This document shows positions 943-63,012 of a stretch of 63,012 bases of DNA, in pieces. The position numbers and the translations under genes are program-made. Numbering within the stretch: position 1 is the stretch's first letter; every line of letters starts with the position of its first letter. The notes beneath the pieces were generated by a model. It was not told the origin of the DNA and did no database searches. It worked only from the letters and a program-made list of their open reading frames with translations. This DNA comes from Eubacteriales bacterium (lineage in GTDB: Bacteria > Bacillota > Clostridia > Oscillospirales > CAG-272), in the NCBI GenBank assembly GCA_045613205.1, contig JAZLAO010000143.1, forward strand, positions 1 through 63,012. Direction: 5' to 3'.

Positions 943-961
943 GTTAAATTATATATTAATC

Positions 962-23029: not shown

Positions 23030-23055
23030 ATTTGACTATCCCTTTATCAAACTTT

Positions 23056-23095
23056 AGGGGCTGTCTCAAATTTGCATTTGAGACAGCCCCTTTTG
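23056..23095. terminator. Bidirectional terminator
   Basis: AGGGGCTGTCTCAAA-tttgca-TTTGAGACAGCCCCT. Confidence 0.8.
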
Positions 23096-23115
23096 GCTTG
23101 AATTTTGAATTTAAA

Positions 23116-26100
23116 TTAACCAATAGGAATGAGGGGAGAGTCTTCCTCTTTATATCCGTAGGGGCTCTCCGCACCGCAGTGCTCACAGCTGTCGCCAACG
23201 TAGTGGTGACCTGTAGCAGGAACAACCTCCTGCTCTTTGATAGTTTCACCGCAAGCCTCGCAGTGCTTACCCTCGGTAAGACCTGTTTCGGTACAGGTAG
23301 GCGCTACTGCCTCGTCGGTTACGACGTTGGTATGAGCTGCGGGAACTGTTTCTTGTGTCACTATAACCTCACCGCAAGCCTCGCAGTGCTTACCCTCGGT
23401 AAGACCAGTTTCGGTACAGGTAGGCGCTACTGCCTCGTCGGTTACGACGTTGGTATGAGCTGCGGGAACTATTTCTTGTGTCACTGTAACCTCACCGCAA
23501 ACGGAGCAGTGCTTACCCTCGGTAAGACCAGTTTCGGTGCAGGTAGGCTCTACTGCCTCGTCTGTAACCTCGGTGTGACCTGTTGCATCAACAACAGTCT
23601 GCTTAACGGTAACTTCGCCGCAAACCGAGCAGTGCTTACCCTCGGTAAGACCTGTTTCGGTACAGGTAGGTGCTACTGCCTCGTCTGTAACCTCGGTGTG
23701 ACCTTTTGCATCAATCAGTATTGTTTCTCTTGAAAGCTCCTCACCGCAGGAACAGTAAACTACACTATCGTAAGAACCGTTCTCCGTACAGGTAGCTTCT
23801 GTTAGGTTTTCCTCTACAGTATTGAGGGGGGCGTGTTCGTGCACATCAGTACCGCATATCCAGTACTTGTAGAGGTTTGCCCTAAGAGCTGTTGCATTAC
23901 CTTCCTTGTCGTTATTATCAAGGGTAAGCTCTGTTCCGCTCGTTGCGTCGAGGCTGTCTGCCAAGAACCAATCGTACGGATTTTCAAAGGTTGCGCTTAC
24001 AAGGCCTGAGCAGTATCTGAAAGCTCCCGTGCCGATCCTTGTTACGCTTTTGGGAATTGTTATACTCGTAATGGATGAAGATTTAAATGCTTCATTGTCA
24101 ATTAATTTTACGGGAAGCCCGTTGTACTCGTCAGCGATAACTACTTCGGTTGCCGTGCCGTTGTATCCTACAACCTTCGCATAGGTTCCGTCCTCGGACA
24201 CCTCGTACTTAAGTCCAATAGAAATTGCGGTATCATTAAAGAAGGTTGATGCGACCTTTGCGGCATCAAGGTAGCTGTAATAGTTGTAACCCTGAGTATT
24301 GTTAACGACGGTTATACTCGTAGGAGGGGTTATAATATTGCGGTTTTCTTTGCCGCCGTTGTATCTGAAGGCGTAGTCTACGTAATCGCCTGCCTTTTCC
24401 ACAATCTCCGAATGAAGAATACCTTGGATGTTCGTCAGCTCCATTTCGTATTTCAGAATTTCTTCTTCGCCGTTACCGTCTTCTTCGGTATCTTCTATGA
24501 CATTGCCGTCGCTGTCAACCTTTGCTCCGGCACCGGGTATGACTACGCCGTCACCGTTGACGTCAAAGTGGAAACTGTTATCAACGTATCCGTCTAGGTC
24601 TTTGTCAACAATAGAATATTTTTTGTAGCTGGCCGGAATTTCGGTTTCTATTTCTTCTGTATCCGTATCTTCAAACGCAGACATCGGGATTCCATGCTCG
24701 GGGTCTAGGGTGTATATTCCGACCTTGCCGTCGCCGTTAACGTCAAACTTGGTGCTGTCATCAACGTATCCGTCATTGTCGGCGTCAACAACGGGATATT
24801 TTTTGTAGCCGGATACAATTTCGGTAATTATTTCGGTGATGCCGTCCTTTTCAAATTGCGACATAGGAAGTACGTAAGTCGACGTTTTCGTAAATTCTAC
24901 TTTTATACTGTTGTGATGTAATGATCCGCTTATTTTTCCATCGTTCCACGGCAGCTTCTCGCTTCCGTCCATTATTCCGTCACCGTTTTTATCACCAATC
25001 ATCATTTTATAGATTGATAGAGTGTTTGCTGTTTCTTCAAGATGAAGATTGGGTTCACTGACAAAGTTATGTCCGTACATATTTATCTGATCAACCGTTT
25101 CAGCGGTAACTACATCGCCGTTCTCGCGTTTTAGAAGGTCGTTTCCTGTAATTTCCTTTGTACCGAGCGTTTTATAATAGGTTAAGCCGTCAATAAGAAC
25201 GTCGGGGAACTGACACTTGTATCCAAAATCCCAGTTAGTAAATTGAGAGGAAACTATTTTTTGAGTTCCCGAGGAATACAAGGCAGCAACGTTCTTTAAG
25301 GTCAAGGTGCCGTTCCAGGTGTATCCGTAGTCGCTTCTAAGGCTCATAAGAGTACCGCTGCTGTGTATGTTGGAGTTTTCAACGGTGAAGTCGCCCCAGC
25401 CGCCAATTGCGATAAGCTGAACGTCGCTGTTGATTATTTTTCCGTTACAAAGGCCCTTGTGAGCGTCAAGACGCGCAATTCTTGAATTAACGTAAGCGAA
25501 ATTCTTTAGGTTGTTTCCGCCCATCGTACCCCAGCAAGGCTGAAGGAAATTCGAGTTTAGAGGTGACAAAGACAGCTGAGTATTGTTTGAAATTTCAGCG
25601 TCAGCGAAATAGGTATCGGGGTTAACGTAGAAATTCGTCTGCTCGCAGGTATCGAATACACAGTTGTTTACCATGTATATGCTTATTTCATAGGATGATC
25701 TGCCCGAGGCATAGAGTCTTCTTCCCTGAAGCTTGCAGTTATAGAATGTAACGTCGCTTGTATTTGTTGCACAGAAAAATCCCGAGTAGGTTGCCCCGTT
25801 CATCTGTACTTGCTTCTTGACTCCGTTTTCTTCCGTTATTTGAAGCTTGTGCTCACCGATTATGTTGTGATTGAGGTTTTCGACTCTTGTGTTCGGGCGC
25901 TGAACGTCAAATCCGCGGCCTATTTGTATTCTGTCTTCAATTCTTCCTTGCGTGATAAACTCCGGTACGATAGTGGTTATATTTCCGCCGCTTATCGTGA
26001 TCTTGGGAATATCGATATTGTAAACCGTGAGGCTATCAAGATTAGAGTAGGTGAATATCGGAGGTGTCGTAGGATCAAGGTTGCCTTTTTCGTCGATAAC

Positions 26101-29100
26101 GATAAGCTCCTGCATTGCCTCGCCCTCAAGGTTTCCGCTGCCTCTGTATGCTCCCTGACGTCTGAAGACCTTATGCTCTGAGTTCAGCGTAACTATCATC
26201 GCGCGATAGCCGAGAGTAAGATCGATTTTTTTGGTTGTGGGGGTAAGATTAACTGCTTGACTCGCTATAGCCTCAAGCGTTGCTTCGTCGGTTATAGTTG
26301 ATGCTTCAAGATGTGATTTAACGACGAATACGTCCTCACCGCTGGATTTTTGCAGCTCGGAGTCGTCAAGGATAAAGCGTGCGTTCCCCCAGTTGACGTT
26401 CGTTTCTATAACGATTTGATTGTGGGGCGTTTTGTTAACAGTTTTTATGTCAGCAGTATTTATATAGTAAATAGCGGAGTTGTCTGCACAAACCGTGTGT
26501 CTTTTGCTTGCGTTAGCAAAGTCGTGTGTCTCTATTAAAGCGTAGAGCGCGGTTTCGAGAACACCGCTTTCTTTGATTTTATCAAGAACTGTATGCTCTC
26601 CGCTGCAACAAACGTCGTCATTGTACCATTGGTTTATATCTGTCGTAATTTCTTTTTCTTCAAGTAAAGACATATCGACTGTAGGTACGCCAAAGTCGGA
26701 ATAATAAATCTTATCGGTATAGTAGCTGTCAGTAAAGGTCGAGCCGAAATCAAAGCTCTTGTTAAGGGTTGCGATATTCTTGTTTATAAAGTTTGCCATT
26801 CCGTTTTCAATAAAGGATTTGAATGAGCAGTTTATAACAAGGCTCTTACCGTTAACTCTTACCTCAAAGTCGTAATCGTGGGTAGGCTCAGTGAGGTTTA
26901 CATAGATGCCGTTCTTTCCGGCGGGTGTGTGTCTCAGTATATCAAGTCTTTTACCGGTCTTCGTAAGGATTGCATCCTTGAGTGCCTTTGCGACACCGTA
27001 TTCCTCAAGGTCTGCAACTATTACGTAGTTTTCGGAGTTTACCTCTTCACCGGCTATGCTGATATTTACAGTGGGAGTATCCGGAGTTGAGGTGTCCTTA
27101 ATATAGGCGCGGGCAGCTTCGGAGTATGCCCATATCGCACCGTTAAGGGCAACGAGAGTATCATTAGCGTCTTGCTTTGCGAAGAGATAGTTTGCAAGTG
27201 AGTAAGAATAGTCGGCATCTCCGTCACCGTTAATGTCTGCGGTTATCCTTTCGCAAAGGTCAGCGGCTCTGAGATAGAGAACGTAGGCAGAACCTCCGGA
27301 AACGTCTACGGTTTTTTCAACTCTCTTGAGATTCTCAGTATAGGAGAAGGTTACGTTACCACCGGCATTATCCGTAAAGTAGAATACAAAGCCAACCTGC
27401 TTTCCCGGTGAGAGTGTTGCACCGCTGAAATAAGGTGCTTCCGAATTTTCTTTAATCTGTGTGTCGTTCTTATTATTCGAAGCAATATCTAAAAGAGATT
27501 GCGTGTCAACGTCTTTGTAAGGAAGCACCTTGTTGTCTACATAGGCAAAATAGTTCATCGTTGCCTTTATGTAGGTTCTGGTAGCTCTGACTAGGTCCTT
27601 TGCTGAATCCGTAAAGTTTGCCGCTTCTACTTTGTCGGCATAGTCGAATATTGAGAATTCGAGCTCCTTGGTTACGGTTTCGCCAAATGCGCCCTTCATT
27701 TCGATAACCAGTCTGTATTCCGAGTCACCCTCGGTAGCAAGGATATCCTGGCTGACTACGTAATGCTCAACACCCGAAATGACTTGTGTTTTGCTTTCGT
27801 CAAACGTAACGTCTGCGAGCCGAGTGCCGTCTGCGCTTTCAATCCATTTGCCGGTTATCGTATCTGAATCGCCTGCGGTCTTGGGAATGTAAAGGTTAAA
27901 GGTGAAGCTCGAGTGCAAGAAAACGTTCGCTTGAACGGTGAACTTGATAATAGGAGTGAGCGTGTAGGTGCAGTCGCCTGACTCCTTTGTGGTGGTTATT
28001 TTCGGGAGGTAATCGTAGGTATAAACGTCGGATGAAGGCGCAGAGAACGCGTGCGCCGGGTACACGTCTGAATTCACCCATTTTTCCGTTGTTGCATTGC
28101 CGTCTACAACCCATGTGATATCTACGCAGTCGCTGCTATTCGTCAGCGTGTATAAAACCGGGATTTGTTTTTCGCTGATCTCGGTAATATCCCAGAATCC
28201 CGACCATTTTGCAGAGAAAGAAATTATATTTTCCAGAACGCTGGTTCTTGCCAGTACTGCTGAGTTATTGTTTTCATAGCTTTCGGTGGGCAGTGTACTG
28301 AATTTACAGTCTATGTATTCGGGCTCGCCTTTTTTGAGAGTGTGTATAGTGCTGCCGATAAGAGTACAGCCCTCAAGCTTAACGTGCGAGGCTTTCGTAT
28401 GATGCTCTTCATCGTAATCCGATTCATAGACACCCGACAGAACTGTTCCATCTGTATAAAGTGTACAGTTAGTCATTTCTACGTCGCCGTCGGCAGGGGA
28501 TGCGTAATAGTTACTTCCTACTATCTTCTCATTTCGTGCAAAGTTTAAAACAGCTCCGTTGACCGTTGAAATAAAACGCGCGCCGTTTGCAGATATATCG
28601 GTGCCGGTAGATACGTCGATCATTGCACCGGAAAGCGCCGAAACGCTGTAATGAGTACCTCCGCCTACGTAGAACGAGGAGCTTGCGGCAGGTGCTGAGG
28701 TGCTATCTCTTTCGCCTGAAAAGAGTCTGGGAGCGTAGGTTTCAATATTATCGCCGTCGCAGTATACGTTGAAAATCTTTTCTGCCGAAGCAAGCGCACC
28801 GCTTTCATCAAGGGTGTGTGAAAGAACCGGTACGTTGTCGTTATTAACATTTTTGCCGTCAGGATTTCCGTCATTAACGTCTCCGAGGTATATATGAGCG
28901 TTTTTGACTCCGCCTTTTCTCATACCGAAGATCGGAGCGAATTTGCCCCTTTCAGTGTTGGCATCATCTTCCATGGTGTGGATTGCATGGATAGACGCTA
29001 CGTTTTCGTTATCGGATGAATATACGTAGAAGTTAGTGTTGGATTCTGCATTCAGTGAAACATAGTTGCCGCCGGCAGAACCACCGCCGGCAGTGGTTTT

Positions 29101-30468
29101 CCTTATGTGCAGTGAAAGCTGGTAGCCGTTAAGGTCGAGATATACGTTGCCCTCGCCTATGGATGTGCTAGCGGACATAACCACACTGACGTCGGAGAGA
29201 AGCTTTATAGCGCTGCCGTTCTTCATGTCATCGAGAGTTGTCAGAAATTTATCATTTGACACGAGCGTATAAGCGTCTTTGCCGGAATCGAAATAGAGGA
29301 ATTTTCCCGAAGCCTCCGCCTCTTTCGAGCTCTTTTCCGGATCAGTGGTGTTATTCTCTGCATAGTAGTTAAGCTCAAGATTGTCAAACGCGAACGAGTA
29401 TTTGTCGTACATTTTTTCGCCCGGGATTCCGGCTTGCGTGTTATCTTTATAAAACTCCATCTTCAACTGATAGAATACGTTATATTTAGCAGCGTTCGTA
29501 ACAGTAGCTCCATCTCTTGTGAAAGAGGACCAGCTGCTGAGAGTTTGCGCATATTCACCGTTGACGTAAAGCTTGGGAGTAATAACTGACTCGACAACGT
29601 CGTTATAGGTTTCGCCTTCGCTTACTTCAAAAACGAATGAGATATGGTCAAAAACGCCGATTTCACCTGAAAGCTTGGCATTTCCCAAATACCAACCGTC
29701 ACTCTTCTTTGTAACGGAAACACCGGCAGCTGCGTTCTGTTTCCAATAAGTATTGCTGCTGGAAGAGAGCAGATTCTTATTATTGCCCGATGCGTCTACT
29801 TCGTTCAGGTTTGAATCGTCCTGCAATGAAGACTGGAATACAGGAGTAAGTTTAAGATCTGTGGGATATGCAAGTGTTTTTGCCTCTAAAACAGCTTTTA
29901 TTTCCTCGTCTGTGAAGTTTTTAGCCGCAAGCTCAGCTTTGATTACGTCGTCGCTGGAAGCCGTTTTGTATACGGTCGTTCCCTCGTATACATAGGTGTA
30001 CGCCCATGCGTCAGCACCGAAATCGAAGTCGAGGGTTATGGACTTAAAATTCGAAACATCGGCTGCAGAGCTGTAATTGGAGTATGCTCTCCATCTTATC
30101 GTTGCTTCGCGCTTAATCTGGGCTGCGATTTCATTTTCTAATAAAGAAGAATAGAATGCGCTCGGATTGTCAAGTGCACCTGCGGTATAGTGTATCCGCG
30201 CGTAAGTGTTTCCTTTCCCGTCAGATACGTGTGAAATAGTAATAAATTCACTTTTTTTACTGTTCTCCGAGCCAAAGAGCAGACCTGAATTTGAAGATGC
30301 AAGGTATTCAGTCAGACCGTTAGGTCCTACCGTGCAATCGTCGATTACCGATTCTGCTATAGCCAGTGTTTTGCCTGCGTTTTCCGCTGACGCAAAAAGC
30401 ACTGCTATTGCGCTGAAAAGAAGACAAACAGACAGTAAAACTGCAAGTAGTTTAGAGCGTTTAGACAT
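23116..30468 (-). CDS. Giant secreted multidomain protein: signal peptide, unknown N-terminal domains, beta-helix core homologous to 54345-63012 array, DxDxDG repeats, BspA-type LRR, Cys/His repeats
   Basis: [28 protein letters not shown]; shared motifs RLDAH, LRSDYG.TW.G, NWDFGY; [21 protein letters not shown]; [14 protein letters not shown] repeats. Confidence 0.8.
23200..23850 (-). repeat. Four ~123-nt (41-aa) tandem Cys/His repeats plus one degenerate copy
   Basis: accgcaagcctcgcagtgcttaccctcggtaag recurs at 23248 and 23371 (period 123); unit [24 protein letters not shown]. Confidence 0.9.
24540..24840 (-). repeat. Two 180-nt (60-aa) repeats with DxDxDG calcium-binding-like motifs
   Basis: [24 protein letters not shown] / [24 protein letters not shown]; ttttgtagc at 24621 and 24801. 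Confidence 0.75.
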
Positions 30469-30502
30469 AATATTTCTCCTAAATATAAAATATATCAAAT
30501 CT

Positions 30503-30531
30503 ATTATATCATGCAAATTGTTTGGTGTCAA
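30503..30531 (-). promoter_or_regulatory. sigmaA promoter of giant gene
   Basis: TTGACA-17-TATAAT with extended TG. Confidence 0.8.
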
Positions 30532-30576: not shown

Positions 30577-30611
30577 AAAAAAATGAGAGCAGCCCAATTT
30601 GAGCTGCCCTC
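30577..30611 (-). terminator. Terminator closing the phage-like operon
   Basis: Minus strand GAGGGCAGCTC-aaatt-GGGCTGCTCTC followed by ATTTTTTT. Confidence 0.7.
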
Positions 30612-30664: not shown

Positions 30665-31489
30665 CTAAACAGTTTTTAAGAATGCATCGAGGAGTCTTGT
30701 TTTGGTTTCAAGCCATAGCGTGATTCTGTGCTTTTTATAATTATATCGCGAGACGTAGCCCTTGAATCCGATGAGCAGGAGCGAGGAAAGCTTGAATATT
30801 CCGTCTAAAATCACGCCTATCGAGAGATTGTCCTTCGTCGTCAGGATTACTGAAACCGTGACTGTCATACAGACCGTCGTCGGCAAAAGCTTCAGCACCA
30901 TAAACGCAAATCTGAATTTTTCGGGGTTCGAAAGCTCGCTTCTTTCCTTTGATTGCTCATGTGAGAGCAGGGCTTTCGGTGTCAAGGATATTGCGCGGAA
31001 TTTATCTGCTCGGCGAAATACACGCAATGCCTTTTTGGTTTGCTTTTTGCCTTGCCTGTAGGCTTCGTATTCGTCGGTTCCGTACCCGTATCCGATAAGA
31101 AAGCTTTCGCGCCTGTATTTGAGCTCGTCGGCAGAGTAGCTTTGAGAAAATTTTCTTAGTGCCGAGATTTTATCTCCGCCTATCTCTTTGCAAAGCTCGT
31201 TGTATTTGCCGAGAGCTACCTTGTATTCCTCGCACCGCTCGCCCGCGTTTTCGCCCGCCTCGGTCATTGAAAAATACATCAGATATGAGGAAATCAGCAT
31301 AATTAGCAGAGTCGTAGTAAAGCTTTCGGTGCTGAAATCTGCCATTTTTATGTCGGTGAAAAGTACCAGAGCTGAAACTATAAGAGTGATAGAGGCAACT
31401 ATGCGCCCCACGTTGTTGATAAGCAGCGCGGTGCCTCGCCTCATAATTTCTCCCGATTCGAGAAGTGAAAGCTCGAACTTATCCTTCAT
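30665..31489 (-). CDS. Membrane protein, ~4 TM with cytoplasmic helical loop
   Basis: Two N-terminal and two C-terminal hydrophobic helices. Confidence 0.7.
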   Translation of the reverse strand: MKDKFELSLLESGEIMRRGTALLINNVGRIVASITLIVSALVLFTDIKMADFSTESFTTTLLIMLISSYLMYFSMTEAGENAGERCEEYKVALGKYNELCKEIGGDKISALRKFSQSYSADELKYRRESFLIGYGYGTDEYEAYRQGKKQTKKALRVFRRADKFRAISLTPKALLSHEQSKERSELSNPEKFRFAFMVLKLLPTTVCMTVTVSVILTTKDNLSIGVILDGIFKLSSLLLIGFKGYVSRYNYKKHRITLWLETKTRLLDAFLKTV

Positions 31490-31859
31490 TTTTCCACTCT
31501 CCCACCCTCTTATATCTCTCTGCTAGCTTGAATAACATAGCACCGAGGAGGTTAGATATGAATCCAACGAAGCAAATTACCTTCATTTCCTCTGCAATTT
31601 CCGATAGCATGAAGAAGATAACAAATGCGAAAAACCACATGAGATAAGCAGCGGGTGATTTCAATGCTTGCTTTACAAGCTTTATTACGGGAACTGCTGC
31701 CATAAGTATGAGCGTGAGGGAAAAACCTGAGATTACTGCCGTCGCGCCTCTGTTTGTCCATATCGGAAAATAAAAAGCTATAGAAGATAAGACCGGCAGA
31801 ACAGACAGTAGAAGTCCGACAGCGTAAAGCAAATAAAACTTACGCTTAGGCTTATTCAT
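31479..31859 (-). CDS. Small polytopic membrane protein (4 TM; holin-like topology possible)
   Basis: Basic N-terminus then four hydrophobic helices; GGAGG RBS before ATG 31859. Confidence 0.65.
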   Translation of the reverse strand: MNKPKRKFYLLYAVGLLLSVLPVLSSIAFYFPIWTNRGATAVISGFSLTLILMAAVPVIKLVKQALKSPAAYLMWFFAFVIFFMLSEIAEEMKVICFVGFISNLLGAMLFKLAERYKRVGEWKNEG

Positions 31860-32433
31860 CGGACTTTTCCTCCGTGTCAAGAAGCCTTTTCTTCATTGCG
31901 GATATTTTTTCTCCTACAGCCTCCTTCTGAAACAGAGGAATAGAGCTTGACATAAAGATGTCGTAAAGCATATCTATCTGCGATTCCAGAATTATTTTCA
32001 TATCCTCAGCACTTTTTTTATCCTCTATCGCCTCGCTGAGCCTTTTTTCAACGCAGTCAAGCTTTTCCGAGAGAGAGGAAAGACACTTTTCGGTGTCAGT
32101 GAGCTTGTCCTTTGCCTCGGTTAGCGTTTTTACCGACGCTTCGCTTGCTTTGTCGGCTTCTTCCTGCAGTTTAGTTACTGTAGCACCGAGCGTGTTAAGC
32201 CCGCCTTTTATGAGGGGAACAATTCCCGAACGGTATGTGAATGCGAGGAAAAGGGAAGCGCAGAAAGCAAGAGCCGAAAGTATTTTGTCGGAGTGCTGTA
32301 AAATCAAAGAATAAACATCTGCAAAGACGTTTGATTCCGCTGAGGCTTCCTGTCCATCGCTCGCAAGGACGCTGACCGACAGAAGCGAAAATATAAGAAA
32401 TACTGTTAGTGTAACTGTTAAAACTTTTTTCAT
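31852..32433 (-). CDS. Membrane-anchored coiled-coil protein
   Basis: Signal-like N-terminus, second TM, heptad-rich C-terminal half. Confidence 0.7.
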   Translation of the reverse strand: MKKVLTVTLTVFLIFSLLSVSVLASDGQEASAESNVFADVYSLILQHSDKILSALAFCASLFLAFTYRSGIVPLIKGGLNTLGATVTKLQEEADKASEASVKTLTEAKDKLTDTEKCLSSLSEKLDCVEKRLSEAIEDKKSAEDMKIILESQIDMLYDIFMSSSIPLFQKEAVGEKISAMKKRLLDTEEKSDE

Positions 32434-32449
32434 CTGATTATTCCTTTCT

Positions 32450-32845
32450 TCAAAAAGTGATTTTTCTTTCTGTTTTGTTTTCTAATTCCCCGAGTGCTTT
32501 TTCAATGGCGTCCATACGGTGAAGAATAGCATCGACGGTAATCGACAGTCTTCTCACATAATCCGAATCGGGCGCTTTTTGAATAACAGCACCGTGCTTG
32601 AATATGAATCCTTCGATTTTGTGCATACCCCCACCCGTGTAAAGCTTTGGCGCAATTTCTCCTTCAGGAAGACGCGCTGATATAATTCGGCAGACACCGC
32701 CGCAAATATCGAATACCGAGTTTGAAATCAGAAGCTTTCCGTCAACGGGTTCTTCAAATTCAAATGTAATTTCTTCACCGGGATGATTGGAAATTTCCGA
32801 GATTTCATATCGCCCGAGAATCTTTTTGTAAAAAATAGTAGTCAT
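32450..32845 (-). CDS. Hypothetical protein (beta-rich N-term, short coiled coil C-term)
   Basis: ORF with GGAGG RBS in operon. Confidence 0.6.
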   Translation of the reverse strand: MTTIFYKKILGRYEISEISNHPGEEITFEFEEPVDGKLLISNSVFDICGGVCRIISARLPEGEIAPKLYTGGGMHKIEGFIFKHGAVIQKAPDSDYVRRLSITVDAILHRMDAIEKALGELENKTERKITF

Positions 32846-32854
32846 TTTACCTCC

Positions 32855-33241
32855 TTAGAGCGAAAGCTTGAGCTTATCGGCTATCTTGTCGACGTCAGCT
32901 CTCAGCTTGATTAAGTATTCAGCGAGGTTTCCGTTAGGTGCTGCAAGATATGTCAAAAGGTTTCCGTTTAAGACGTCGGAGAAAAAATCGGCAAGGGTTT
33001 GTGTATCGAAAAGTCCTGTCTTTATTGTATCTGTTACGCTTCCGCCTTCTTCTCCGCGAATATCCAATATAAGCTCGTTGTATTTTTCCACAAGGAAAAG
33101 CGGAAGACTGTCAAAAGCTTCTTTCAGCTCGGTTGCGGTATATCCCTTTCCGCCGAAGGCGGCGGGGGCGGTCGGTCTTGTCGGCAGAGAAGCGACCTTT
33201 TTGTCGTTTATATCTCCGTCTGTGATTATCTTTGATTTCAT
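32855..33241 (-). CDS. Hypothetical protein, possible tail-fibre anchor domain
   Basis: SLPTRPT..TATELKEAFD motif; position after tail hub. Confidence 0.5.
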   Translation of the reverse strand: MKSKIITDGDINDKKVASLPTRPTAPAAFGGKGYTATELKEAFDSLPLFLVEKYNELILDIRGEEGGSVTDTIKTGLFDTQTLADFFSDVLNGNLLTYLAAPNGNLAEYLIKLRADVDKIADKLKLSL

Positions 33242-33253
33242 AGTTATCCTTTC

Positions 33254-36807: not shown

Positions 36808-36835
36808 TTTTTCTCCTTCCATAGATATTGGTAAA

Positions 36836-36875
36836 GAAAGGCGGAGCCGTATGATTCGGTATATCCGCCTTCCCT
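36836..36875 (-). terminator. Hairpin between capsid and tail genes
   Basis: Minus strand AAGGCGGA...TCCGCCTT followed by TCTTT. Confidence 0.55.
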
Positions 36876-36906
36876 CAAAAACTAATTAAATTGCAGTTTC
36901 AAGATA

Positions 36907-37962: not shown

Positions 37963-37980
37963 TTTTATCTCCTTTCAAAT

Positions 37981-38394: not shown

Positions 38395-38409
38395 AAATAT
38401 TTCCTTTCT

Positions 38410-38889: not shown

Positions 38890-39023
38890 TTCTTAGTGCC
38901 TCCGCGCAGGTCACCGTTCCCTGTGATTTTGGAAGAGGCGGGCTCCTTTTTATTCGAGCCACGGGGTGCATCTATTTTCGTAGGGTTGTAGGTTCCGTAG
39001 GGAGAGTATTCTTTGTTTTTCAT
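38886..39023 (-). CDS. 45-aa basic small protein (not in ORF track)
   Basis: MKNKEYSPYGTYNPTKIDAPRGSNKKEPASSKITGNGDLRGGTKK*; AAAGGA RBS; TGA overlaps next ATG (ATGA). Confidence 0.7.
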   Translation of the reverse strand: MKNKEYSPYGTYNPTKIDAPRGSNKKEPASSKITGNGDLRGGTKK

Positions 39024-39070
39024 ATCTTTTTCCTTTCTGTTTATTTATCGGCATTGCCGCTTTCGGCAGC

Positions 39071-54270: not shown

Positions 54271-54344
54271 AATAGAAAGGACGGATATTTCTCTTTCTTT
54301 ATGTGCATTTTTTGCAAAAAAAGGAAACTTGGAGGATAAAGGTT

Positions 54345-56492
54345 ATGGCTTTTGAATACAAGGGAATCAAAATTAATCGCGATTACGTTGTTTATGAGGA
54401 TTTTGGCGCGGTAGGCGACGGAAAAGCAGAGGATTTCGGAGCGATTTATAAAACGCACGAGTATGCTAACGCACACGGACTTACAGTAAAGGGAACACCC
54501 GGAAAAACCTATTACATAAAGGATACTACTCTCGGTACGGAAGAGGTGCAGGTTGCTAAAATCAAGACCAACGTTGATTGGTGCGGCGCTAATTTTGTAA
54601 TTGACGATACCGAGCTTACCGTAATGCGAGATTATCCTTGCAGAAAAATGGCACTAGAGTCTATTTTCGAGGTTGTTCCCGATGATGAGCATATGCCGTT
54701 CAGACTTGATGACCCTACTCTTCTTTCGCGGATTGCAGAGCAGGGCTTGAATCAGCAGACAAAGAGAATAGACCTTGGGCTTGACTTTGACGGACCTGTT
54801 ATGATAATTCCTTACAACTCGGCACATTGCGTGTTCAGGCGCCGCGGAACAGGGCAGTTTAACGGCTCTCCGATGCACGAGATTATCGTCGTTGAGGCGG
54901 ACGGAAGCATCAGCGAGGAAACTCCCATAATGTTCAGCTATAAATCCATCGATTATATGGACGTATACAAGCTTGACCCGACGTCTGCCATATCAATAAA
55001 AAACGGAGTATTTACCACCCTTGAATCTAGAGTTAACCACTATCTTCCGAAGGCAGACGGAACGCTTGAGTATATATATCACGGTTATATCGTCAGAAAT
55101 CTGCACGTTATGCGTTCCTACACGACGGTTGAAAATATAGAGCACAGGGTGAGCGGCGGATTCACTCTTCTTGACAGAGCGGAGAGAAATCTTGAGGGAG
55201 CAATGTACCACGGATTTTTCGTGGCGGACGATGCAAACCACGTTACCTTTAAAAATTGTATAATTCCCGGAAGAACCTCCCCGGGTCCCGGCGGCGGACA
55301 CTCATCCTACGGCTTCAAGGCTAATCACGTCAATAAGATAGTTCTCGACGGATGCTTCCAGCCTAACTTCTGGATATCCATTGATCCCGAAACCTACGAA
55401 ATAAAGAATGCAACCGTTTATGACGAAAATGCTATCGGAAGAGCAAGAAAGGCATCCAAGGATGCCGTTGCGGCGATGGGATCGGCTGACGTAAACGGAA
55501 TAAAGAGAAGACTTTGCTGGGGACTTGGCGGAACAAACTTCTGTAAGAATATGGAGTATATCAATTCCACGGTTACCCGTTTTGATGCTCACGCGGGTCT
55601 TTATAACGGAAAAATAATCAACTGTAACATAAGCGGAATTGAGCTTACGGGTGTCGGTGAGCTTTCGCTTGAAAAGTGCAATTGGTATCAGTATTCAATA
55701 AATAACCCTATTCTTCTTCTGCGTGGAGATTACGGCTGTCACTGGAGTGGAGATATAAGCATAAAAGACGTCAACGCTTATATGCTCAACAAAGAAAAAG
55801 TTTACATAGCATCACACAGCTTCATTAACTGGTATTTCGGATACACCTGCGCAATACCCAGCGTTTCGGTCGATAACGTCAAATTCTTCGACCAAAAGAC
55901 AGAAGAAGCGCTTGCACCGGGATTTGAGGCGCATTACTTTAAATTCACCGAAGCCTCGGAAAAGATGCACCTTGATGAAACCGACGTGCCTGCAATATTC
56001 TCGGTAAACGATTTTGACGGTGACGGATATATCGACGAGCCCCGTTTTATTTCAGACGTGGACGGCACGTTCTATCCCGAGCGCGACCTTGACGGAGACG
56101 GCAGAGTAGGAAACACGTCACTTAAATACGATGACTATATGAATAAGTCCGAATTTATTTTAGGCGGTCTTGCAAGGCCGTCGCATTACCTCGGCGCTAC
56201 TCACCCGACCTGCACGGTGAATCTCAATAAGATACGCCCTCCCAAATACTTTAAGGTTGTAAATAACACAAACGAAAACGGAGAGGCTGTCGGTAAGTAT
56301 TACGTCAAAAACACTGTCGGTATAAGTGACGGCGGCTGGCACAGAGATGCAAGCTCACCCGATACCATGGGCGGATTTTTCGGTAACACGAAATTTATAT
56401 ACGGAAGCGGTGAGGACGACTATGCTCTCGGAACTGCTGAAAACGCCGCTGTAGGAGAGGGATTCGTTTTTACGAGCGAATACGATATTTAA
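54345..56492 (+). CDS. Right-handed beta-helix (pectin-lyase-like) protein, paralog 1
   Basis: YVVYEDFGAVGDGKAEDFGAI..HEYAN N-terminal motif; beta-helix periodicity; no signal peptide. Confidence 0.75.
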   Translation: MAFEYKGIKINRDYVVYEDFGAVGDGKAEDFGAIYKTHEYANAHGLTVKGTPGKTYYIKDTTLGTEEVQVAKIKTNVDWCGANFVIDDTELTVMRDYPCRKMALESIFEVVPDDEHMPFRLDDPTLLSRIAEQGLNQQTKRIDLGLDFDGPVMIIPYNSAHCVFRRRGTGQFNGSPMHEIIVVEADGSISEETPIMFSYKSIDYMDVYKLDPTSAISIKNGVFTTLESRVNHYLPKADGTLEYIYHGYIVRNLHVMRSYTTVENIEHRVSGGFTLLDRAERNLEGAMYHGFFVADDANHVTFKNCIIPGRTSPGPGGGHSSYGFKANHVNKIVLDGCFQPNFWISIDPETYEIKNATVYDENAIGRARKASKDAVAAMGSADVNGIKRRLCWGLGGTNFCKNMEYINSTVTRFDAHAGLYNGKIINCNISGIELTGVGELSLEKCNWYQYSINNPILLLRGDYGCHWSGDISIKDVNAYMLNKEKVYIASHSFINWYFGYTCAIPSVSVDNVKFFDQKTEEALAPGFEAHYFKFTEASEKMHLDETDVPAIFSVNDFDGDGYIDEPRFISDVDGTFYPERDLDGDGRVGNTSLKYDDYMNKSEFILGGLARPSHYLGATHPTCTVNLNKIRPPKYFKVVNNTNENGEAVGKYYVKNTVGISDGGWHRDASSPDTMGGFFGNTKFIYGSGEDDYALGTAENAAVGEGFVFTSEYDI

Positions 56493-56529
56493 TTTCAGAC
56501 GATTAAAGGTATATTACAAGGAATGAATT

Positions 56530-58689
56530 ATGAATTCTGCTATAAAAGAACTCAAACTAGACCGTGACTACGTAACCTACGAGGACTTCGGCGCTGTAGG
56601 CGACGGAAAAACAGAGGATTTCGGAGCGATTTACAAGACTCACGAATATGCAAACGAGCATGGACTTACCGTAAAGGCGACAGCCGGCAAAACCTATTAC
56701 ATAAAGGATACGAAGCTTGGCACTGATACGGTTCACGTAGCGAAGATAAAGACAAACGTTGATTGGCGCGGTGCTCATTTCATAATCGATAATACCAATT
56801 TAACGGTAATGAAGGATTATCCCGAGGAAAGAGCAATAGCAATGCAGCCGATTTTCTTGGTTGTCCCCGAAAAAGAGCACGAGATGTTCAAGATAGAGAA
56901 TTCCGAGGTTCTTGAAAGAATAGCCAAGGCGGGACTCAATCAGAAAACGAAGAAGATTGATATCGGTGTCGATTGGGACGGTCCTGTGATGATAGTTCCT
57001 TACACTTCCTCGCATAAGGCGTTCAAACGACGCGGAACAACTCAGTTCGACGGCTCGGAAATGCACGAGATCATCCTCATTGATAAAGACGGTAACGTAA
57101 GCCCCGAAACACCTATAATGTTCAGCTACGCGACCGTTGACAAATTAGAAGTTTATAAGCTTGATCCGAGCTGTGCGCTGACTGTCGAAAACGGTGTGTT
57201 CACCACGCTTGAATCAAGAGTCAATCACTATATTCCCAAAAGCGACGGAACCCGCGCGTACATTTATCACGGTTATATAAACAGAGGAATAAAGGTTATC
57301 CGTTCATACACGACGGTTAAGAATATTGAGCACATAGTAACCGGCGGTTTCACTCTTCTTGACAGAGCAGAGAGAAATCTTGAGGGGGCTATGTACCACG
57401 GCTTCATATCTGTGGCTGATTCTAACCATGTCACATTAAAAGATTGTATACTTCCCGGAAGAACCTCCCCGGGACCGGGCGGCGGACACTCATCCTACGG
57501 CTTCAACGCATACGGTGTTAATAAAATAGTTCTCGACGGCTGTATTCAGCCGAACTTCTGGGTAACGATAGACCCCGAAACCTACGAAATTAAAAATGCA
57601 ACGGTTTATGATAAAAATGCCGTCGGATGCGCCGTCAAGGGTGCTGAGGACGTCTACGAGGGCATGAGCACGGTTGACGTAAACGGAGAAAAGAGAAAGC
57701 TTTGCTGGGGCTTTGGCGGAACTCATTATTGCAAGAACATGGAGTATATCAACTCAACGCTCACCCGTTTTGATGCGCACTCGGGTCTTTACAACGGAAA
57801 AATTATCAACTGCAATATAACCGGAATTATGCTCACCGGATACGGTGATATGCTTGTCGAGGGCAGTAACTGGTATCAGTACGGAATGACGATTCCGATG
57901 CTTTATCTCAGAGGTGATTACGGGCATCATTGGCGCGGTGACATTACTGTTAAAAATACGAGAGCTCATCTTATGAACACCGAAAAGTTTTATCTCGTTA
58001 ATCATTCTTTTAATAATTGGTATTACGGATATACCACCTCCATTCCGAATATTACCGTTGATAATCTTCGCTTTTTTGATTCCTCAAACGGCGAGGCGGT
58101 AAAACCCGGATTTGAAGCGAAATTTTTCAAATTTACCACGCAATCCTCAAGAATGCATCTTGACGATGCAAAGGTGCCGTCTATTTTCGGTGTTGTCGAT
58201 AAGGACGGTGACGGATATATAGACGAGCCCCGCTTCATATCAGATGTGGACGGAAGCTTTTACCCCGAGCGTGACCTTGACGGTGACGGAAGAGTGGGCA
58301 ATACATCGCTCAAATACGACGATTACGTGAACGGCTCGGTCTTTATCAGCGGCGGACTTGCAAGATCGGCTTACTTTAAGGGAGCCACCCACCCAACCTG
58401 CACGGCGAACCTTAACAAGATAAGACCGCCTAAGTATTTTAAGGTTTTGAACAATAAAACCGAGGATGGCGAAATAATTGCAAAATACGTCGTTAAGGAT
58501 ACCTCGGGTGAGGGTATTTCCGACGGTGACTGGTACCGCTATGCCGAAGCTTTCGACACTATGGGCGGTTTCTTTGGCAGAACTGAGTTCATATACGGTG
58601 AGGGCGATGGAGAACGCTTTGTGGGCACGGAAAACAAAAACGGTATTTGCGATACCTTCGTATTTGTCGGAGAATACGATGTAGAATAA
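56530..58689 (+). CDS. Right-handed beta-helix protein, paralog 2
   Basis: Collinear with paralog 1 over full length. Confidence 0.75.
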   Translation: MNSAIKELKLDRDYVTYEDFGAVGDGKTEDFGAIYKTHEYANEHGLTVKATAGKTYYIKDTKLGTDTVHVAKIKTNVDWRGAHFIIDNTNLTVMKDYPEERAIAMQPIFLVVPEKEHEMFKIENSEVLERIAKAGLNQKTKKIDIGVDWDGPVMIVPYTSSHKAFKRRGTTQFDGSEMHEIILIDKDGNVSPETPIMFSYATVDKLEVYKLDPSCALTVENGVFTTLESRVNHYIPKSDGTRAYIYHGYINRGIKVIRSYTTVKNIEHIVTGGFTLLDRAERNLEGAMYHGFISVADSNHVTLKDCILPGRTSPGPGGGHSSYGFNAYGVNKIVLDGCIQPNFWVTIDPETYEIKNATVYDKNAVGCAVKGAEDVYEGMSTVDVNGEKRKLCWGFGGTHYCKNMEYINSTLTRFDAHSGLYNGKIINCNITGIMLTGYGDMLVEGSNWYQYGMTIPMLYLRGDYGHHWRGDITVKNTRAHLMNTEKFYLVNHSFNNWYYGYTTSIPNITVDNLRFFDSSNGEAVKPGFEAKFFKFTTQSSRMHLDDAKVPSIFGVVDKDGDGYIDEPRFISDVDGSFYPERDLDGDGRVGNTSLKYDDYVNGSVFISGGLARSAYFKGATHPTCTANLNKIRPPKYFKVLNNKTEDGEIIAKYVVKDTSGEGISDGDWYRYAEAFDTMGGFFGRTEFIYGEGDGERFVGTENKNGICDTFVFVGEYDVE

Positions 58690-58723
58690 AACATAAAAAG
58701 TATGGGGCTTAAGGAGAAACGTT

Positions 58724-60877
58724 ATGGAAAACAACATCAAGCTTGACCGCGATTACGTTACCTACGAGGACTTTGGAGCTGTAGGAGACGGCAAAACCGA
58801 GGACTTTGCTGCAATTTGCAAGACTCATGAGTATGCAAACGAGCACAAACTCGCAGTAAAGGGAACTCCGGGAAAAACCTACTACATAAGAGATACGAAA
58901 TTTGGAACTGATAAGGTACATACCGCAATAATAAAAACGAACGTTGACTGGTGCGGAGCGCATTTCATAATCGACGACACTAACCTCACGGCTATGAATG
59001 ATTATCCCGAGGAAAGAGAAATGGCTATTGCCGACTTGTTTGCGGTTGAACCCGACGATGAGCACCGTATGTTCAAAATAGAGGATCCCGAGCATCTTGC
59101 GAGGATAGCCGCGCAGGGTTTAAATCAGAAAACGAAGAAAATTGACCTCGGTATAGATTGGGACGGTCCCGTTATGATAATTCCGTATAATTCTGCGCAC
59201 GGAGTCTTCAGACGTCGGGGAATGTCGGCATTTCGTGGCAGCGCTATGCACGAAATTATCGTTGTTGAGGCTGACGGCAGTATAAGCGAGGAAACTCCCA
59301 TAATGTTCAGCTATGCGAATATTGATTCCATAGACGTTTATAAGCTTGACCCGAAGAGCGCTATAACTATTGAAAACGGCGTATTTACTACCCTTGAATC
59401 AAGAGTAAATCACTATCTTCCCAAGGAAGACGGAACTCTTGAATATATCTACCACGGTTACATAAGAAGAAATTTCGTGGTTCGTCGCTCTTATACCACG
59501 ATAAAGAGACTCGAGCATATCGTAACCGGAGGATATACTCTTCTTGACAGAGTGGAGCGAAATCTTGAGGGTGGAATGTACGGTGGATTTTTCGCCTCAT
59601 GGTACGCAAACCACCTTACCTACAAGGATTGCAGAATGCAGGGAAGAACTTCGCCCGGTCCCGGAAACGGACATTCATCTTACGACTTCGGCGCCAACTA
59701 TATTAACAAGATAGTTTTTGACGGATGTGTTCAGTCAAATTTCTGGGTAACAATCGATCCCGAAACCTTTGAGATAAAGAACGCGACCGAGTATGATGAG
59801 AATGCTGTCGGTCATGCGAGAAAGGTTGGCGAGAATGCTTGCTGCAGCATGGGATGGGCTGACGTTAACGGTGTTAAGAGAAGAATTTGTTGGGGTGTTG
59901 GCGGCAGTAATTTCTGCAAAAACCTTGAGTATATAAACTCAACGCTCACACGCCTTGACGCTCATCAGGGACTTTACAACGGAAAGGTCATAAACAGCAA
60001 TATAAGCTGTATGGCTATTGCGGGTTACGGTGATTTTATAGTCGAGAACACTAATTGGTATCAGTATAATATCGCGTCTCAAAGTCAGCTCATTTATCTG
60101 CGCGGCGACTACGGTTGCCATTGGTCGGGTGACGTTAAGGTTAAGAACGTAAACGGCTATATGATAAATCGCGACGAGTTTTACGTTACGCATTCCGGAT
60201 TTACCAACTGGTATTTCGGATACACTTGCGCTTTTCCTGATATTACCATTGATAATCTTAGATTTTTCGTTCAGGAAACGGGCGAGCCGTTGAAACCGGG
60301 ATACAAGGGATATCTTTTTAAGTTCGTTCCCGCCTTTACAAGCAGACATCTTGACGATGCGAAGGTTCCTTCAATTTTTGCCGTTACCGACGCGGACGGC
60401 GACGGATATATAGACGAGCCGCGTTTCATTTCGGACACGGACGGAACATTTTATCCCGCGCGCGATCTTGACGGTGACGGAAAGATAGGTAATACCTCTC
60501 TCAGCTACGACGAATATATAAACGCGCCGCCTATGATCGTCGGAGGTGTAGTCAGACCCTCGCATCTTAACGGAGCCGTTCATCCAACCTGCACGGCAAA
60601 CCTTAATAAGTCAAGACCTCCTAAATATTTTAAGGTAGTTAATAATACCGATGAAAACGGTGATACGGTTTGCAATTACGTCACAAGGGATACCTCGGTT
60701 GACGGTGTATCCGACGGCGGCTGGTATAGAGCTGTTGACACTCTTGATACGATGGGCGGTTACTTTGGCGGCACTCGGTTTATATACGGCGAGAGCGACG
60801 GAGAGAGCTTCGTAGGAACTAAGGATAAAAACGGCATTTGCGACACCTTCGTATTCACTGAGGAATACAACGTCTGA
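58724..60877 (+). CDS. Right-handed beta-helix protein, paralog 3
   Basis: Collinear with paralogs 1-2. Confidence 0.75.
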   Translation: MENNIKLDRDYVTYEDFGAVGDGKTEDFAAICKTHEYANEHKLAVKGTPGKTYYIRDTKFGTDKVHTAIIKTNVDWCGAHFIIDDTNLTAMNDYPEEREMAIADLFAVEPDDEHRMFKIEDPEHLARIAAQGLNQKTKKIDLGIDWDGPVMIIPYNSAHGVFRRRGMSAFRGSAMHEIIVVEADGSISEETPIMFSYANIDSIDVYKLDPKSAITIENGVFTTLESRVNHYLPKEDGTLEYIYHGYIRRNFVVRRSYTTIKRLEHIVTGGYTLLDRVERNLEGGMYGGFFASWYANHLTYKDCRMQGRTSPGPGNGHSSYDFGANYINKIVFDGCVQSNFWVTIDPETFEIKNATEYDENAVGHARKVGENACCSMGWADVNGVKRRICWGVGGSNFCKNLEYINSTLTRLDAHQGLYNGKVINSNISCMAIAGYGDFIVENTNWYQYNIASQSQLIYLRGDYGCHWSGDVKVKNVNGYMINRDEFYVTHSGFTNWYFGYTCAFPDITIDNLRFFVQETGEPLKPGYKGYLFKFVPAFTSRHLDDAKVPSIFAVTDADGDGYIDEPRFISDTDGTFYPARDLDGDGKIGNTSLSYDEYINAPPMIVGGVVRPSHLNGAVHPTCTANLNKSRPPKYFKVVNNTDENGDTVCNYVTRDTSVDGVSDGGWYRAVDTLDTMGGYFGGTRFIYGESDGESFVGTKDKNGICDTFVFTEEYNV

Positions 60878-60921
60878 TAAAAATATTCAAATACAAAACC
60901 ATAGAGTTAAGGAGAAATGTT

Positions 60922-63012
60922 ATGGAAAACAACATTAAGCTTGATCGAGACTACGTTACCTACGAGGACTTTGGAGCTGTAGGTGACGGCAAAACCGAGG
61001 ACTTTGGTGCAATTTGCAAGACTCACGAGTATGCAAACGAGCACAGACTTACGGTAAAGGGAACTCCCGGAAAAACCTACTACATAAAGGACACGAAGCT
61101 CGGTACCGATGAGGTTCACGTAGCGGTTATAAAAACAAACGTTGACTGGTGCGGTGCGAATTTCATTATCGACGATACCGACCTCACGGTAATGAAAAAT
61201 TATCCCGAGGAAAGAGCAATTGCGACAAAACCCATATTCAAAATTGCCGCCGAGGACGAGCATAAGCCTTTTAAGATAGAGGACAAGGAGCACCTTGCGA
61301 GAATTGCCGCTCAGGGGCTTAATCAAAAAACAAAGAAGATTGACCTCGGTATTGACTGGGACGGTCCTGTTATGATAATTCCCTCAAACTCGGCTCACGG
61401 TGTTTTCAGACGCCGCGGTACAAGCCAGTATAACGGCGCGCCTATGCGCGAGCTTATAATAGTTGATAAGGACGGAAACGTAAGCGAAGAAACGCCTATA
61501 ATGTTCAGCTATGCGAACATTGATTCCATAGACGTTTATAAGCTCGACCCAAGGACTGCCATTACTATTGAAAACGGCGTGTTCACCACACTGGAATCAA
61601 GAGTTAATCACCACATTCCTAAGGAAGACGGAACCTTCGCATACATTTATCACGGTTATATAGTCAGAGGCTTAAGTATAACCCGTTCTTACACAACGGT
61701 GAAGAACGTTCAACACATTGCAAAAGGCGGCTACACGCTTCTTGACAGAGCTGAGAGAAATCTTGAGGGCGCAATGTACTCGGCATTCTTCTCTGCGAGC
61801 TATGCCGACCACATTACCTTTAAGGATTGCAGACTTCAGGGCAGAACCTCGCCCGGTCCCGGAAACGGACATTCGTCATATGATTTCGGCGCTGCCTTCG
61901 TTAATAAGGTTGTTCTTGACGGATGCGTTCAGTCTAACTTCTGGGTAACGATAGACCCCGTAACATTTGAGATTAAGAGCGCTACCGAGTACGACGAAAA
62001 TGCGACAGGACATGCGAGAAAGGTCGGTGAGAACGCTTGCAGCGGCATGGGATGGGCTAATATAAACGGAGTTATGAGAAGACTGTGCTGGGGTATCGGC
62101 GGAAGCAACTTCTGTAAGAATATGGAGTATATCAACTCAACTCTCTCTCGTTTTGACGCTCACCAGGGACTTTACAACGGAAAGGTTATCAATTCAAACG
62201 TCAGCTGTATGGCTCTTGCGGGCTACGGTGATTTTACCATTGAGGATACGAACTGGTATCAGTACGGAAAGGACTCGCAGTGCGAGCTGTTATATCTGCG
62301 CGGTGACTACGGCTGTCATTGGTTCGGAGATATACTTGTGAAGAACGTAAATGCGCACGTTATCAACACCGAGAAGTTCTACGTCGCGAACCACGGTTTT
62401 GGAAACTGGTATTTCGGTTACACCTGTACGTTCCCGAACATTTCTATCGACAATCTCAGATTTTTCGATCAGAAAACGGGTGAGCCTATGAAACCCGGAT
62501 TTGAAGGTCATCTTTTCAAGTTCCGCGAGAAGTCGGAATGTATGCATCTTGACGATGCAAAGGTTACGTCCATATTCCCTGTAAACGATTATGACGGTGA
62601 CGGATATATCGACGAGCCGAGATTCATTTCGGACACCGACGGAACCTTCTATCCCGAGCGTGACCTTGACGGTGACGGAAGAGTTGGAAATACCTCTCTT
62701 AAGTATGACGATTACGTAAACGGTTCGGTATTCTATTCCGGAGGCTTGGCGCGTTCCAGCTATTTCAGGGGTGCTGAACATCCTACCTGTACCGCAAACC
62801 TTAATAAGATAAGACCTCCTAAGTACTTCAAGATTTTCAACAACAAAAACGAGAACGGTGAGGTCGTTTGCAACTACCTCATCAAGGATACCTCGGGCGT
62901 TTCCGACGGTGGCTGGTACAGAGATGCAGATACCCCCGACACCATGGGCGGCTTCTTCGGCGGCACCGAATTCCACTACGGTGACGGTGAGTTCTTCGTA
63001 GGAACCGAGAAC
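60922..63012 (+). CDS. Right-handed beta-helix protein, paralog 4 (runs off window; absent from ORF track)
   Basis: AAGGAG RBS, ATG 60922 MENNIKLDRDYVTYEDFGAVGDG...; segments translated by hand are open and collinear, and the frame matches the paralog C-terminus (GGTEFHYGDGEFFVGTEN) at the window end. Confidence 0.8.
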   Translation, partial: MENNIKLDRDYVTYEDFGAVGDGKTEDFGAICKTHEYANEHRLTVKGTPGKTYYIKDTKLGTDEVHVAVIKTNVDWCGANFIIDDTDLTVMKNYPEERAIATKPIFKIAAEDEHKPFKIEDKEHLARIAAQGLNQKTKKIDLGIDWDGPVMIIPSNSAHGVFRRRGTSQYNGAPMRELIIVDKDGNVSEETPIMFSYANIDSIDVYKLDPRTAITIENGVFTTLESRVNHHIPKEDGTFAYIYHGYIVRGLSITRSYTTVKNVQHIAKGGYTLLDRAERNLEGAMYSAFFSASYADHITFKDCRLQGRTSPGPGNGHSSYDFGAAFVNKVVLDGCVQSNFWVTIDPVTFEIKSATEYDENATGHARKVGENACSGMGWANINGVMRRLCWGIGGSNFCKNMEYINSTLSRFDAHQGLYNGKVINSNVSCMALAGYGDFTIEDTNWYQYGKDSQCELLYLRGDYGCHWFGDILVKNVNAHVINTEKFYVANHGFGNWYFGYTCTFPNISIDNLRFFDQKTGEPMKPGFEGHLFKFREKSECMHLDDAKVTSIFPVNDYDGDGYIDEPRFISDTDGTFYPERDLDGDGRVGNTSLKYDDYVNGSVFYSGGLARSSYFRGAEHPTCTANLNKIRPPKYFKIFNNKNENGEVVCNYLIKDTSGVSDGGWYRDADTPDTMGGFFGGTEFHYGDGEFFVGTEN

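Follow-up and report, generated by a model that had tools for sequence, protein, structure and literature searches.

Several described systems come close to parts of the locus considered here. The first are the Klebsiella capsule lyases K64-ORF41 (8X8M) and NTUH-K2044-K1-1 ORF34 (7W1C); Tyr528, His574 and Arg628 are the catalytic residues of the beta-eliminating K64-ORF41 lyase (review, PMC11652154). The second are the tail fibres of phages CampHawk (U5PSP0) and A403, virion proteins of uncharacterised activity whose structures are predicted. Third, WceF of Pantoea stewartii, an enzyme encoded by a bacterium rather than a phage, has a tailspike-like beta-helix and cuts the extracellular polysaccharide (EPS) stewartan (PMC7949094). 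Finally, FpGTA of Faecalibacterium prausnitzii is a podovirus-like particle operon whose receptor-binding and lysis genes lie apart from the head operon, in locus II, a small operon with baseplate, fibre and lysis genes at a distance of about 125 kb (PMC12946183). Here we describe the gene for a 2450-amino-acid (aa) protein with an embedded beta-helix, referred to below as the giant, at positions 23116-30468 of the minus strand of contig JAZLAO010000143.1 (GCA_045613205.1). The window is the whole stretch of 63,012 nt that was analysed; contigs C8, C40, C71 and so on belong to the same genome.

The giant resembles the two Klebsiella capsule lyases in its beta-helix, with a profile match to 8X8M over the catalytic coils, but identity is only about 12%, and the giant is bacterial, has a signal peptide, lacks a virion anchor and holds its helix inside a 2450-aa modular protein. 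The CampHawk and A403 tail fibres are the best structural matches overall (TM, the template modelling score, 0.52-0.55; 18% identity), whereas the giant is cellular, with a predicted export signal and a predicted promoter of its own. WceF is comparable in fold and proposed role, but it is a hydrolase of single domain architecture encoded inside the EPS cluster of a Gram-negative bacterium. The hosts of FpGTA and of the giant are both gut Clostridia, although no 2450-aa exported beta-helix protein is described for FpGTA. What is new, as variations on known kinds, is the family, the architecture of the giant with its N-terminal domain and C-terminal tail, and its placement after a particle operon; the component parts are familiar. 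We propose, with a probability of roughly 0.6, that the giant is an independently expressed, Sec-exported, modular polysaccharide lyase of an unannotated family related to phage tailspikes.

This genome encodes nine members of the family: six leaderless proteins, two lipoproteins of about 1010 aa and the giant. Those on which the comparison turns are the following.

25024..26706, minus strand: putative catalytic right-handed beta-helix of the giant, aa 1255-1815 (about 560 aa), defined by homology to the array proteins.
54303..63012, plus strand: tandem array of leaderless paralogues of about 715 aa, which continues on contig C40; the window contains four of them and C40 the other two.
C113:34234-37257 and C87:10377-13412, plus strand: lipoprotein forms of about 1010 aa, on other contigs of the genome.

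An earlier note on this DNA, made from the sequence alone, had claimed that the central part of a 2450-aa protein aligns motif by motif with proteins of an array some 24 kb away. The length and the distance are right, in that translation from the ATG at 30468 gives 2450 aa and the array lies 23.8 kb away, and the alignment holds up well. BLASTP of the giant against the array protein 56530-58689 returns one alignment of 580 columns at 32% identity (E 2e-68), far beyond chance, and all six motif pairs that had been picked out fall inside it. A profile of 42 family members (A1) matches 24889-26664 of the minus strand at E 2.9e-161, and all 15 invariant polar residues examined in the 42-sequence alignment are kept in the giant. 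The giant helix and the array proteins are thus confirmed as true homologues, while at 32% identity only the predicted catalytic core is demonstrably common to both. The family is large and unannotated. Pfam and NCBIfam, scanned with the whole giant and with six separate segments of it, give no match above the gathering threshold in the helix domain, Pectate_lyase_3 and Beta_helix included, and the named homologues, from Ruminococcaceae, Oscillospiraceae or Clostridia metagenome-assembled genomes, are all called 'hypothetical protein'. In an exhaustive HMMER search against 1.84 billion cluster representatives, 1025 clusters score E <= 1e-3 and 273 score E <= 1e-30, so that the family amounts to about 1000 clusters at 50% identity.

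The predicted fold of the family is that of the phage depolymerases. An AlphaFold2 model of the paralogue 56530-58689 is a confident right-handed beta-helix (predicted local distance difference test, pLDDT, 93; predicted TM score, pTM, 0.92), as the earlier note had anticipated. In the PDB it matches the K64-ORF41 tailspike 8x8m best (E 2.3e-13, TM 0.47), and further matches there include the tailspike depolymerases phi297 gp61, LKA1 gp49 and AP22 gp54 and the K1 capsule lyase 7w1c (E 1.6e-5). Among predicted viral structures, the best is the tail fibre of Bacillus phage CampHawk (E 3.7e-25, TM 0.55), and that of Anoxybacillus phage A403 follows at E 3.5e-17 with a root-mean-square deviation (rmsd) of 4.2 Å over 555 columns. 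In a sequence comparison, too, the family profile picks up 8x8m (E 9.8e-5), while its N-cap motif alone matches Phi92 gp150 and a polygalacturonase. By these models and profiles the family is a distant cellular relative of the phage tailspike and tail-fibre depolymerases.

The profile alignment to 8x8m places two of the three catalytic residues. The His of the family motif R-F-D-A-H falls on chain His594 and the Arg of L-R-x-D-Y-G on chain Arg648, which become His574 and Arg628 in native numbering on the assumption of a 20-residue N-terminal tag (the chain has 1037 aa, the native protein 1017). In the giant these are His1670 (25459-25461) and Arg1711 (25336-25338), equivalent to family His417 and Arg461 and invariant in 42 of 42 sequences. 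For the third residue we put forward Tyr1593 (25690-25692), equivalent to Tyr323 of the array proteins and a tyrosine in 41 of the 42 sequences, a choice made on conservation and thus a guess. Tyr1593, His1670 and Arg1711 would then form a catalytic set of the type found in the Klebsiella K1 and K64 capsule lyases.

Export and independent expression of the giant are suggested by the features at the two ends of its gene.

30585..30611, minus strand: intrinsic terminator closing the particle operon, after the 274-aa gene 30665-31489; 12-bp stem with 7 G-C pairs, then ATTTTTTTG.
30503..30531, minus strand: the giant's own sigma-70-type promoter, TTGACA, 17 nt and a TG-extended TATAAT; 12/12 matches.
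30385..30468, minus strand: start codon and export signal, aa 1-28, with predicted cleavage after ASA and before EN; conserved in giant relatives.
23056..23091, either strand: bidirectional terminator between the giant and the convergent clpB; 16-bp stem with 8 G-C pairs.

The very long minus-strand open reading frame (ORF) of the window, 23116-30531, opens at a TTG, but this TTG belongs to the promoter as its -35 box and was rejected on that ground; the start is placed instead at the ATG at 30468, which has an AGGAGA ribosome-binding site 7 nt before it. Read directly, the DNA before the giant thus runs from the stop of the 274-aa gene through a GC-rich hairpin with a run of seven Ts (fold energy -20.3 kcal/mol) to the promoter, the AGGAGA and the ATG. 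The arrangement recurs in related genomes: of nine orthologous gaps, most have a hairpin and T-run followed by a near-consensus promoter. At the equivalent site, the giants of L011, L012, L054 (both giants), L055 and L056 are preceded by TTGACA-17/18-TAAAAT (11/12 matches each), and those of L058 and L061 by sites with 10/12 (with a TAGACT -10 box and a TTGACG -35 box). The best-supported reading of this DNA is that the giant is probably transcribed independently of the particle operon. The export signal was recognised by eye plus a hydropathy rule; among the giant-type clusters, 31 of 32 have a signal peptide. The searches revealed no virion-anchor domain in the giant, whose N-terminus is the signal peptide followed by domains without a Pfam, PHROG-type or PDB match, and the array proteins begin straight at the helix cap.

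The company that the family keeps is consistent with lyase-type metabolism. GH88 (unsaturated glucuronyl hydrolase) is encoded by three genes in this genome, and in a sample of the genus it is present in all 15 family-positive genomes but in only 13 of 26 family-negative ones (Fisher p = 0.001, with no phylogenetic correction). A GH88 gene also stands directly upstream of giants, on the same strand, in G236 (contig C3, 18110-30329) and on the contig of P0208 (L061, 7679-13332). Giants occur as tandem pairs in G236 and in L054. At the start of our window (56-2056) are an ORF for an AraC-type regulator and a PfkB-family kinase that resembles KdgK (2-dehydro-3-deoxygluconokinase; 962-2056, recognised by eye only), genes that would fit uronate catabolism.

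Taken as a mechanism, the core of the giant would most likely cleave a uronic-acid-containing (acidic) glycan by beta-elimination. The domain of about 870 aa before the helix, the Ca2+ loops, the leucine-rich repeats (LRR) and the Cys/His modules may keep the enzyme off the cell and on the polymer. The unsaturated oligosaccharide products would be imported and then shortened by GH88-type hydrolases, perhaps with help from the leaderless paralogues in a division of labour with the giant, after which the trimmed products would enter the 2-keto-3-deoxygluconate (KDG) pathway. The family, unannotated and from uncultured gut and rumen Clostridia, would tie phage tailspike lyases to ordinary cellular glycan metabolism. 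If the lyase reading is true, the family is a candidate new polysaccharide lyase family, and its genes make up a sizeable and unrecognised share of the capacity of small-genome Oscillospirales to degrade polysaccharides.

Several observations weigh against this proposal. First, lyase activity is a prediction for every member of the family, and the alignment to 8x8m begins after Tyr528, so that it gives the catalytic tyrosine no placement. Second, the fold search also brings up GH110 galactosidases and GH28 hydrolases, at E values of 1e-9 to 1e-5, although these superpose poorly (TM 0.2-0.25). Third, GH88 is common in the genus and its association with the family is uncorrected for phylogeny, and KduI was searched for in this genome and is absent. 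Fourth, none of the nine paralogues is surrounded by a locus for sugar transport or carbohydrate-active enzymes, all of them lying among housekeeping genes. Finally, the N-terminal domain is modelled with low confidence (mean pLDDT 66.6), and a PDB fold search with the model gave nothing below E 0.01.

The housekeeping surroundings of the nine paralogues, with no copy in a sugar-uptake locus, are what would be expected if the giant instead remodelled an envelope or matrix glycan of its own cell (the capsule, the EPS or an acidic polymer of the wall) in the manner of WceF, the leaderless forms acting on precursors or upon release by lysis. The precedent of WceF, the strong constitutive-type promoter predicted for the giant, and the fact that the closest folds are tail fibres of Firmicutes phages, which are aimed at cell-envelope polymers, all lend something to this explanation. 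We nonetheless consider it unlikely, the best of the alternatives though it is: the family tracks GH88, a catabolic partner of lyases that adjoins two giants, nine paralogues are many for a housekeeping task, and genes for EPS or capsule synthesis stand beside no copy in this genome.

A somewhat more doubtful explanation keeps the same architecture and export but takes the helix to be a glycoside hydrolase, similar to GH110, to GH28 or to WceF, itself a known cellular tailspike-like hydrolase (PMC7949094). The N-cap motif F-G-A-x-G-D-G-x-T-D-D is indeed common to polygalacturonases and glucanases, and the E values of the fold search (1e-9 for GH110 alpha-galactosidases, 1e-5 for GH28) are low, but the superpositions behind them are poor (TM 0.18-0.25, rmsd about 20 Å) when set against TM 0.47-0.55 for the lyase-type tailspikes. 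Moreover, the sole sequence match of the catalytic core is to the K64 lyase, with the His and the Arg conserved, and it is GH88 that co-occurs with the family and adjoins two giants.

The gene order raises a further question. Upstream of the giant, on the same strand, is an operon for a podovirus-like particle, with genes for a large terminase, a portal, a major capsid protein, an SU10-type adaptor and a nozzle-like protein that bears an LRR; a gene for a fibre or spike is absent from the operon. The giant directly follows the last particle gene, a position that the earlier note had missed, in eight lineages (that of the window and P0123, P0128, G227, P0135, P0143, P0133 and P0139), two giants standing in tandem behind the operon in the P0135 lineage. 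The tailspike gene gp9 of phage P22 likewise stands after ejection genes. Since the fold of the predicted catalytic core is a tailspike fold, the giant could be a receptor-binding or depolymerase partner of the neighbouring gene-transfer-agent-like particle, either as its tailspike or as a protein secreted in trans that strips surface glycan from target cells and so opens the wall to the nearly fibre-less particles.

We regard such a partnership as improbable. First, in most gaps, that of the window included, a terminator and a strong separate promoter are predicted between the operon and the giant. Second, the giant carries a Sec-type signal and no virion-anchor domain was found in it, and a protein with such a signal cannot join a particle assembled in the cytoplasm. 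Third, the two are not co-distributed: in a sample of 41 genomes of the genus, the last operon gene is present in 32 and strong matches to the giant N-terminal domain in four (G000, G211, G227 and G236), and the operon is present in 13 of 15 family-positive and 19 of 26 family-negative genomes (p = 0.44). Fourth, the giants of G211, G236 and P0208 lie away from the operon, whose last gene is followed by a DinG-like ORF in 11 genomes or by clpB in G212. Finally, all eight adjacent cases have the same clpB, fur, arsP and beta-lactamase flanks and therefore represent one inherited arrangement; adjacency that is conserved along with housekeeping flanks is no evidence of function and calls for caution. 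The giant was accordingly rejected as a member of the operon, on the predicted terminator-promoter pair, the export signal and the lack of co-distribution.

No more probable is a bolder version, in which the giant is a 'tailspike in trans': a descendant of the domesticated particle's spike that has acquired a signal peptide and binding modules and conditions the surfaces of neighbouring cells for the docking of fibre-less particles, its conserved signal and D-[STA]-P-hydrophobic tail constituting a lineage-specific display system for large proteins of this kind. Least likely of all is that the giant is mainly an adhesin with the helix as a non-catalytic binding scaffold, as its LRR_5 repeats, Ig-like stalk domains, Ca2+ loops and fast-evolving sequence and the presence of the adhesin PfbA among the fold matches might suggest, since the polar residues that are invariant in the family, with the lyase-type His and Arg among them, are kept in the giant and across giants, which is unexpected for a mere scaffold.

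Returning to the giant as an exported lyase, the family to which it belongs exists in three forms that differ in their predicted location. Short forms have no signal peptide (48 of 48 in one homologue set, 34 of 36 clusters in another), whereas forms with an N-terminal extension of about 300 aa have one (59 of 62 and 48 of 49), usually with a lipobox Cys. The giants are a conserved subfamily of at least 30 clusters, consisting of a signal peptide, the N-terminal domain of about 870 aa, the helix and a C-terminal tail. The earlier note had proposed a two-tier system of exported and intracellular members that would act on the same substrate class, an idea that is partly right. Exported and leaderless forms do coexist in this genome, and each of the four giant-bearing genomes in the 41-genome sample carries several other members, as had been expected; with the lipoproteins included, there are three forms and not two. 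In the lipoprotein forms, a Cys-rich motif, C-x2-C-x-D-x-D-x-DG-x-C-D-x-C, stands right behind the lipobox Cys and is kept in dozens of homologues. In a midpoint-rooted maximum-likelihood tree of the helix domains, the giants occupy the deepest branches and the lipoproteins the next, while the leaderless proteins are a derived clade nested among the lipoprotein forms. The giant is therefore no recent copy of the array genes and, provided that the midpoint root is correct, exported genes gave rise to the leaderless ones. The giants P0126 and P0127 fall among the lipoproteins, a placement that suggests domain replacement. Together the nine paralogues occupy about 26 kb of a 2.05-Mb genome.

The remaining parts of the giant, from the N-terminus onwards, are as follows.

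29314..30372, minus strand: lineage-specific N-terminal cassette, aa 33-385 (353 aa); an insert relative to other giants in alignment A2, without a Pfam match.
27064..29313, minus strand: aa 386-1135, the first 750 aa of the conserved N-terminal domain of about 870 aa; predicted to contain a beta-solenoid-like part, Ig-like sandwiches and helices.
26707..27063, minus strand: alpha/beta module adjoining the helix on its N-terminal side, aa 1136-1254, with which the N-terminal domain ends; also in the N-terminal extension of the lipoproteins.
24334..25023, minus strand: Ca2+-loop region, aa 1816-2045; five D-x-[DN]-x-DG loops, including two repeated modules of about 60 aa.
24139..24333, minus strand: stretch with homology to the array proteins' C-terminal domain, with the motif N-x-N...PP...NN; alignment A2, positions 538-633 of the hidden Markov model profile.
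23911..24102, minus strand: BspA-type LRR_5; Pfam PF13306, E 1.6e-8, 35 bits against a cut-off of 27.7.
23149..23823, minus strand: five Cys/His (CxxCG) zinc-ribbon-like modules, four of them from a 123-bp tandem repeat (3.6 copies, 87% match).
23119..23148, minus strand: conserved extreme C-terminal tail, D-[STA]-P-hydrophobic-hydrophobic-x-[FYW], here EDSPLIPIG.

The architecture given in the earlier note (a signal peptide, about 1250 aa of unassigned N-terminal sequence, DxDxDG repeats, an LRR and Cys/His repeats) is borne out in all its parts, the scan of separate segments giving no Pfam match in the ~1250 aa before the helix. The N-terminal domain is present in 30 of the 32 giant-type clusters among the best 144 representatives, and a word-indexed search finds it in only six other proteins, P0123-P0128. 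The alpha/beta module at its end has a weak tblastn match to the N-terminal extension of the C113 lipoprotein, and over about 100 columns its fold locally matches a segment of GH138 BP0997 that has no assignment. The cassette at the opposite end is 33-39% identical by tblastn to ORFs for other secreted proteins of this genome, on C93, C114 and C106.

Behind the helix, EF-hand matches in Pfam to the Ca2+ loops stay below the cut-off, no dockerin appears in the Pfam scans of the giant, and a single-sequence PDB search with the giant returns only EF-hand-like matches, to these same loops. The array proteins have one pair of the modules of about 60 aa only. The Cys/His modules give only weak zinc-ribbon matches in Pfam; similar modules are found in lipoproteins on C40, C8, C18 and C128. 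The D-[STA]-P-hydrophobic-hydrophobic tail is present in 28 of 33 giants but in only 8 of 231 other family members, and it may be a sorting or attachment signal. Of the surface display that the earlier note had proposed, the export signal is in evidence, but no LPXTG motif, SLH domain or lipobox was found in the giant. The giant may nevertheless be retained at the cell, and the giants' N-terminal domain and C-terminal tail, together with the shared signal peptide, would point to an undescribed mechanism of display or sorting.

The giant also evolves much faster than its neighbours. Between this genome and G227 (L032), identity is 32% in its N-terminal domain but reaches 76% in ClpB, 69% in the beta-lactamase-family protein, 59% in ArsP and 55% in the product of the last particle gene.

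Some further observations concern the sequences around the giant and elsewhere in the genome. An exchange of LRR sequence between the giant and the neighbouring nozzle protein was considered and rejected, the similarity being generic (35% over 83 aa, E 3e-4). The 233-aa plus-strand ORF at 23032-23733 is an antisense shadow of the repeated Cys/His coding region and not a gene. Behind the last gene of the particle operon (30665-43284 on the minus strand; L030-L049), the DinG-like ORF of the 11 genomes is about 800 aa long and reads as a helicase; in G212 clpB comes directly after the operon, and in one clade it is the giant that stands there. A near-identical signal, M-x-K-x-SK-[IL]L-..-L...C[LM]LFGA...ASAE, is common to five large ORFs of this genome (579-2450 aa), namely the giant, two on C93 (C93:75415-81171, minus strand) and two on C106 (C106:11179-18518), while the ORF on C114 (718 aa) has the cassette but a different signal peptide. 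Finally, a 122-aa lipoprotein, C71:5169-5534 on the minus strand, ends in DVDTPIIPWG, a tail of the same type as that of the giants.

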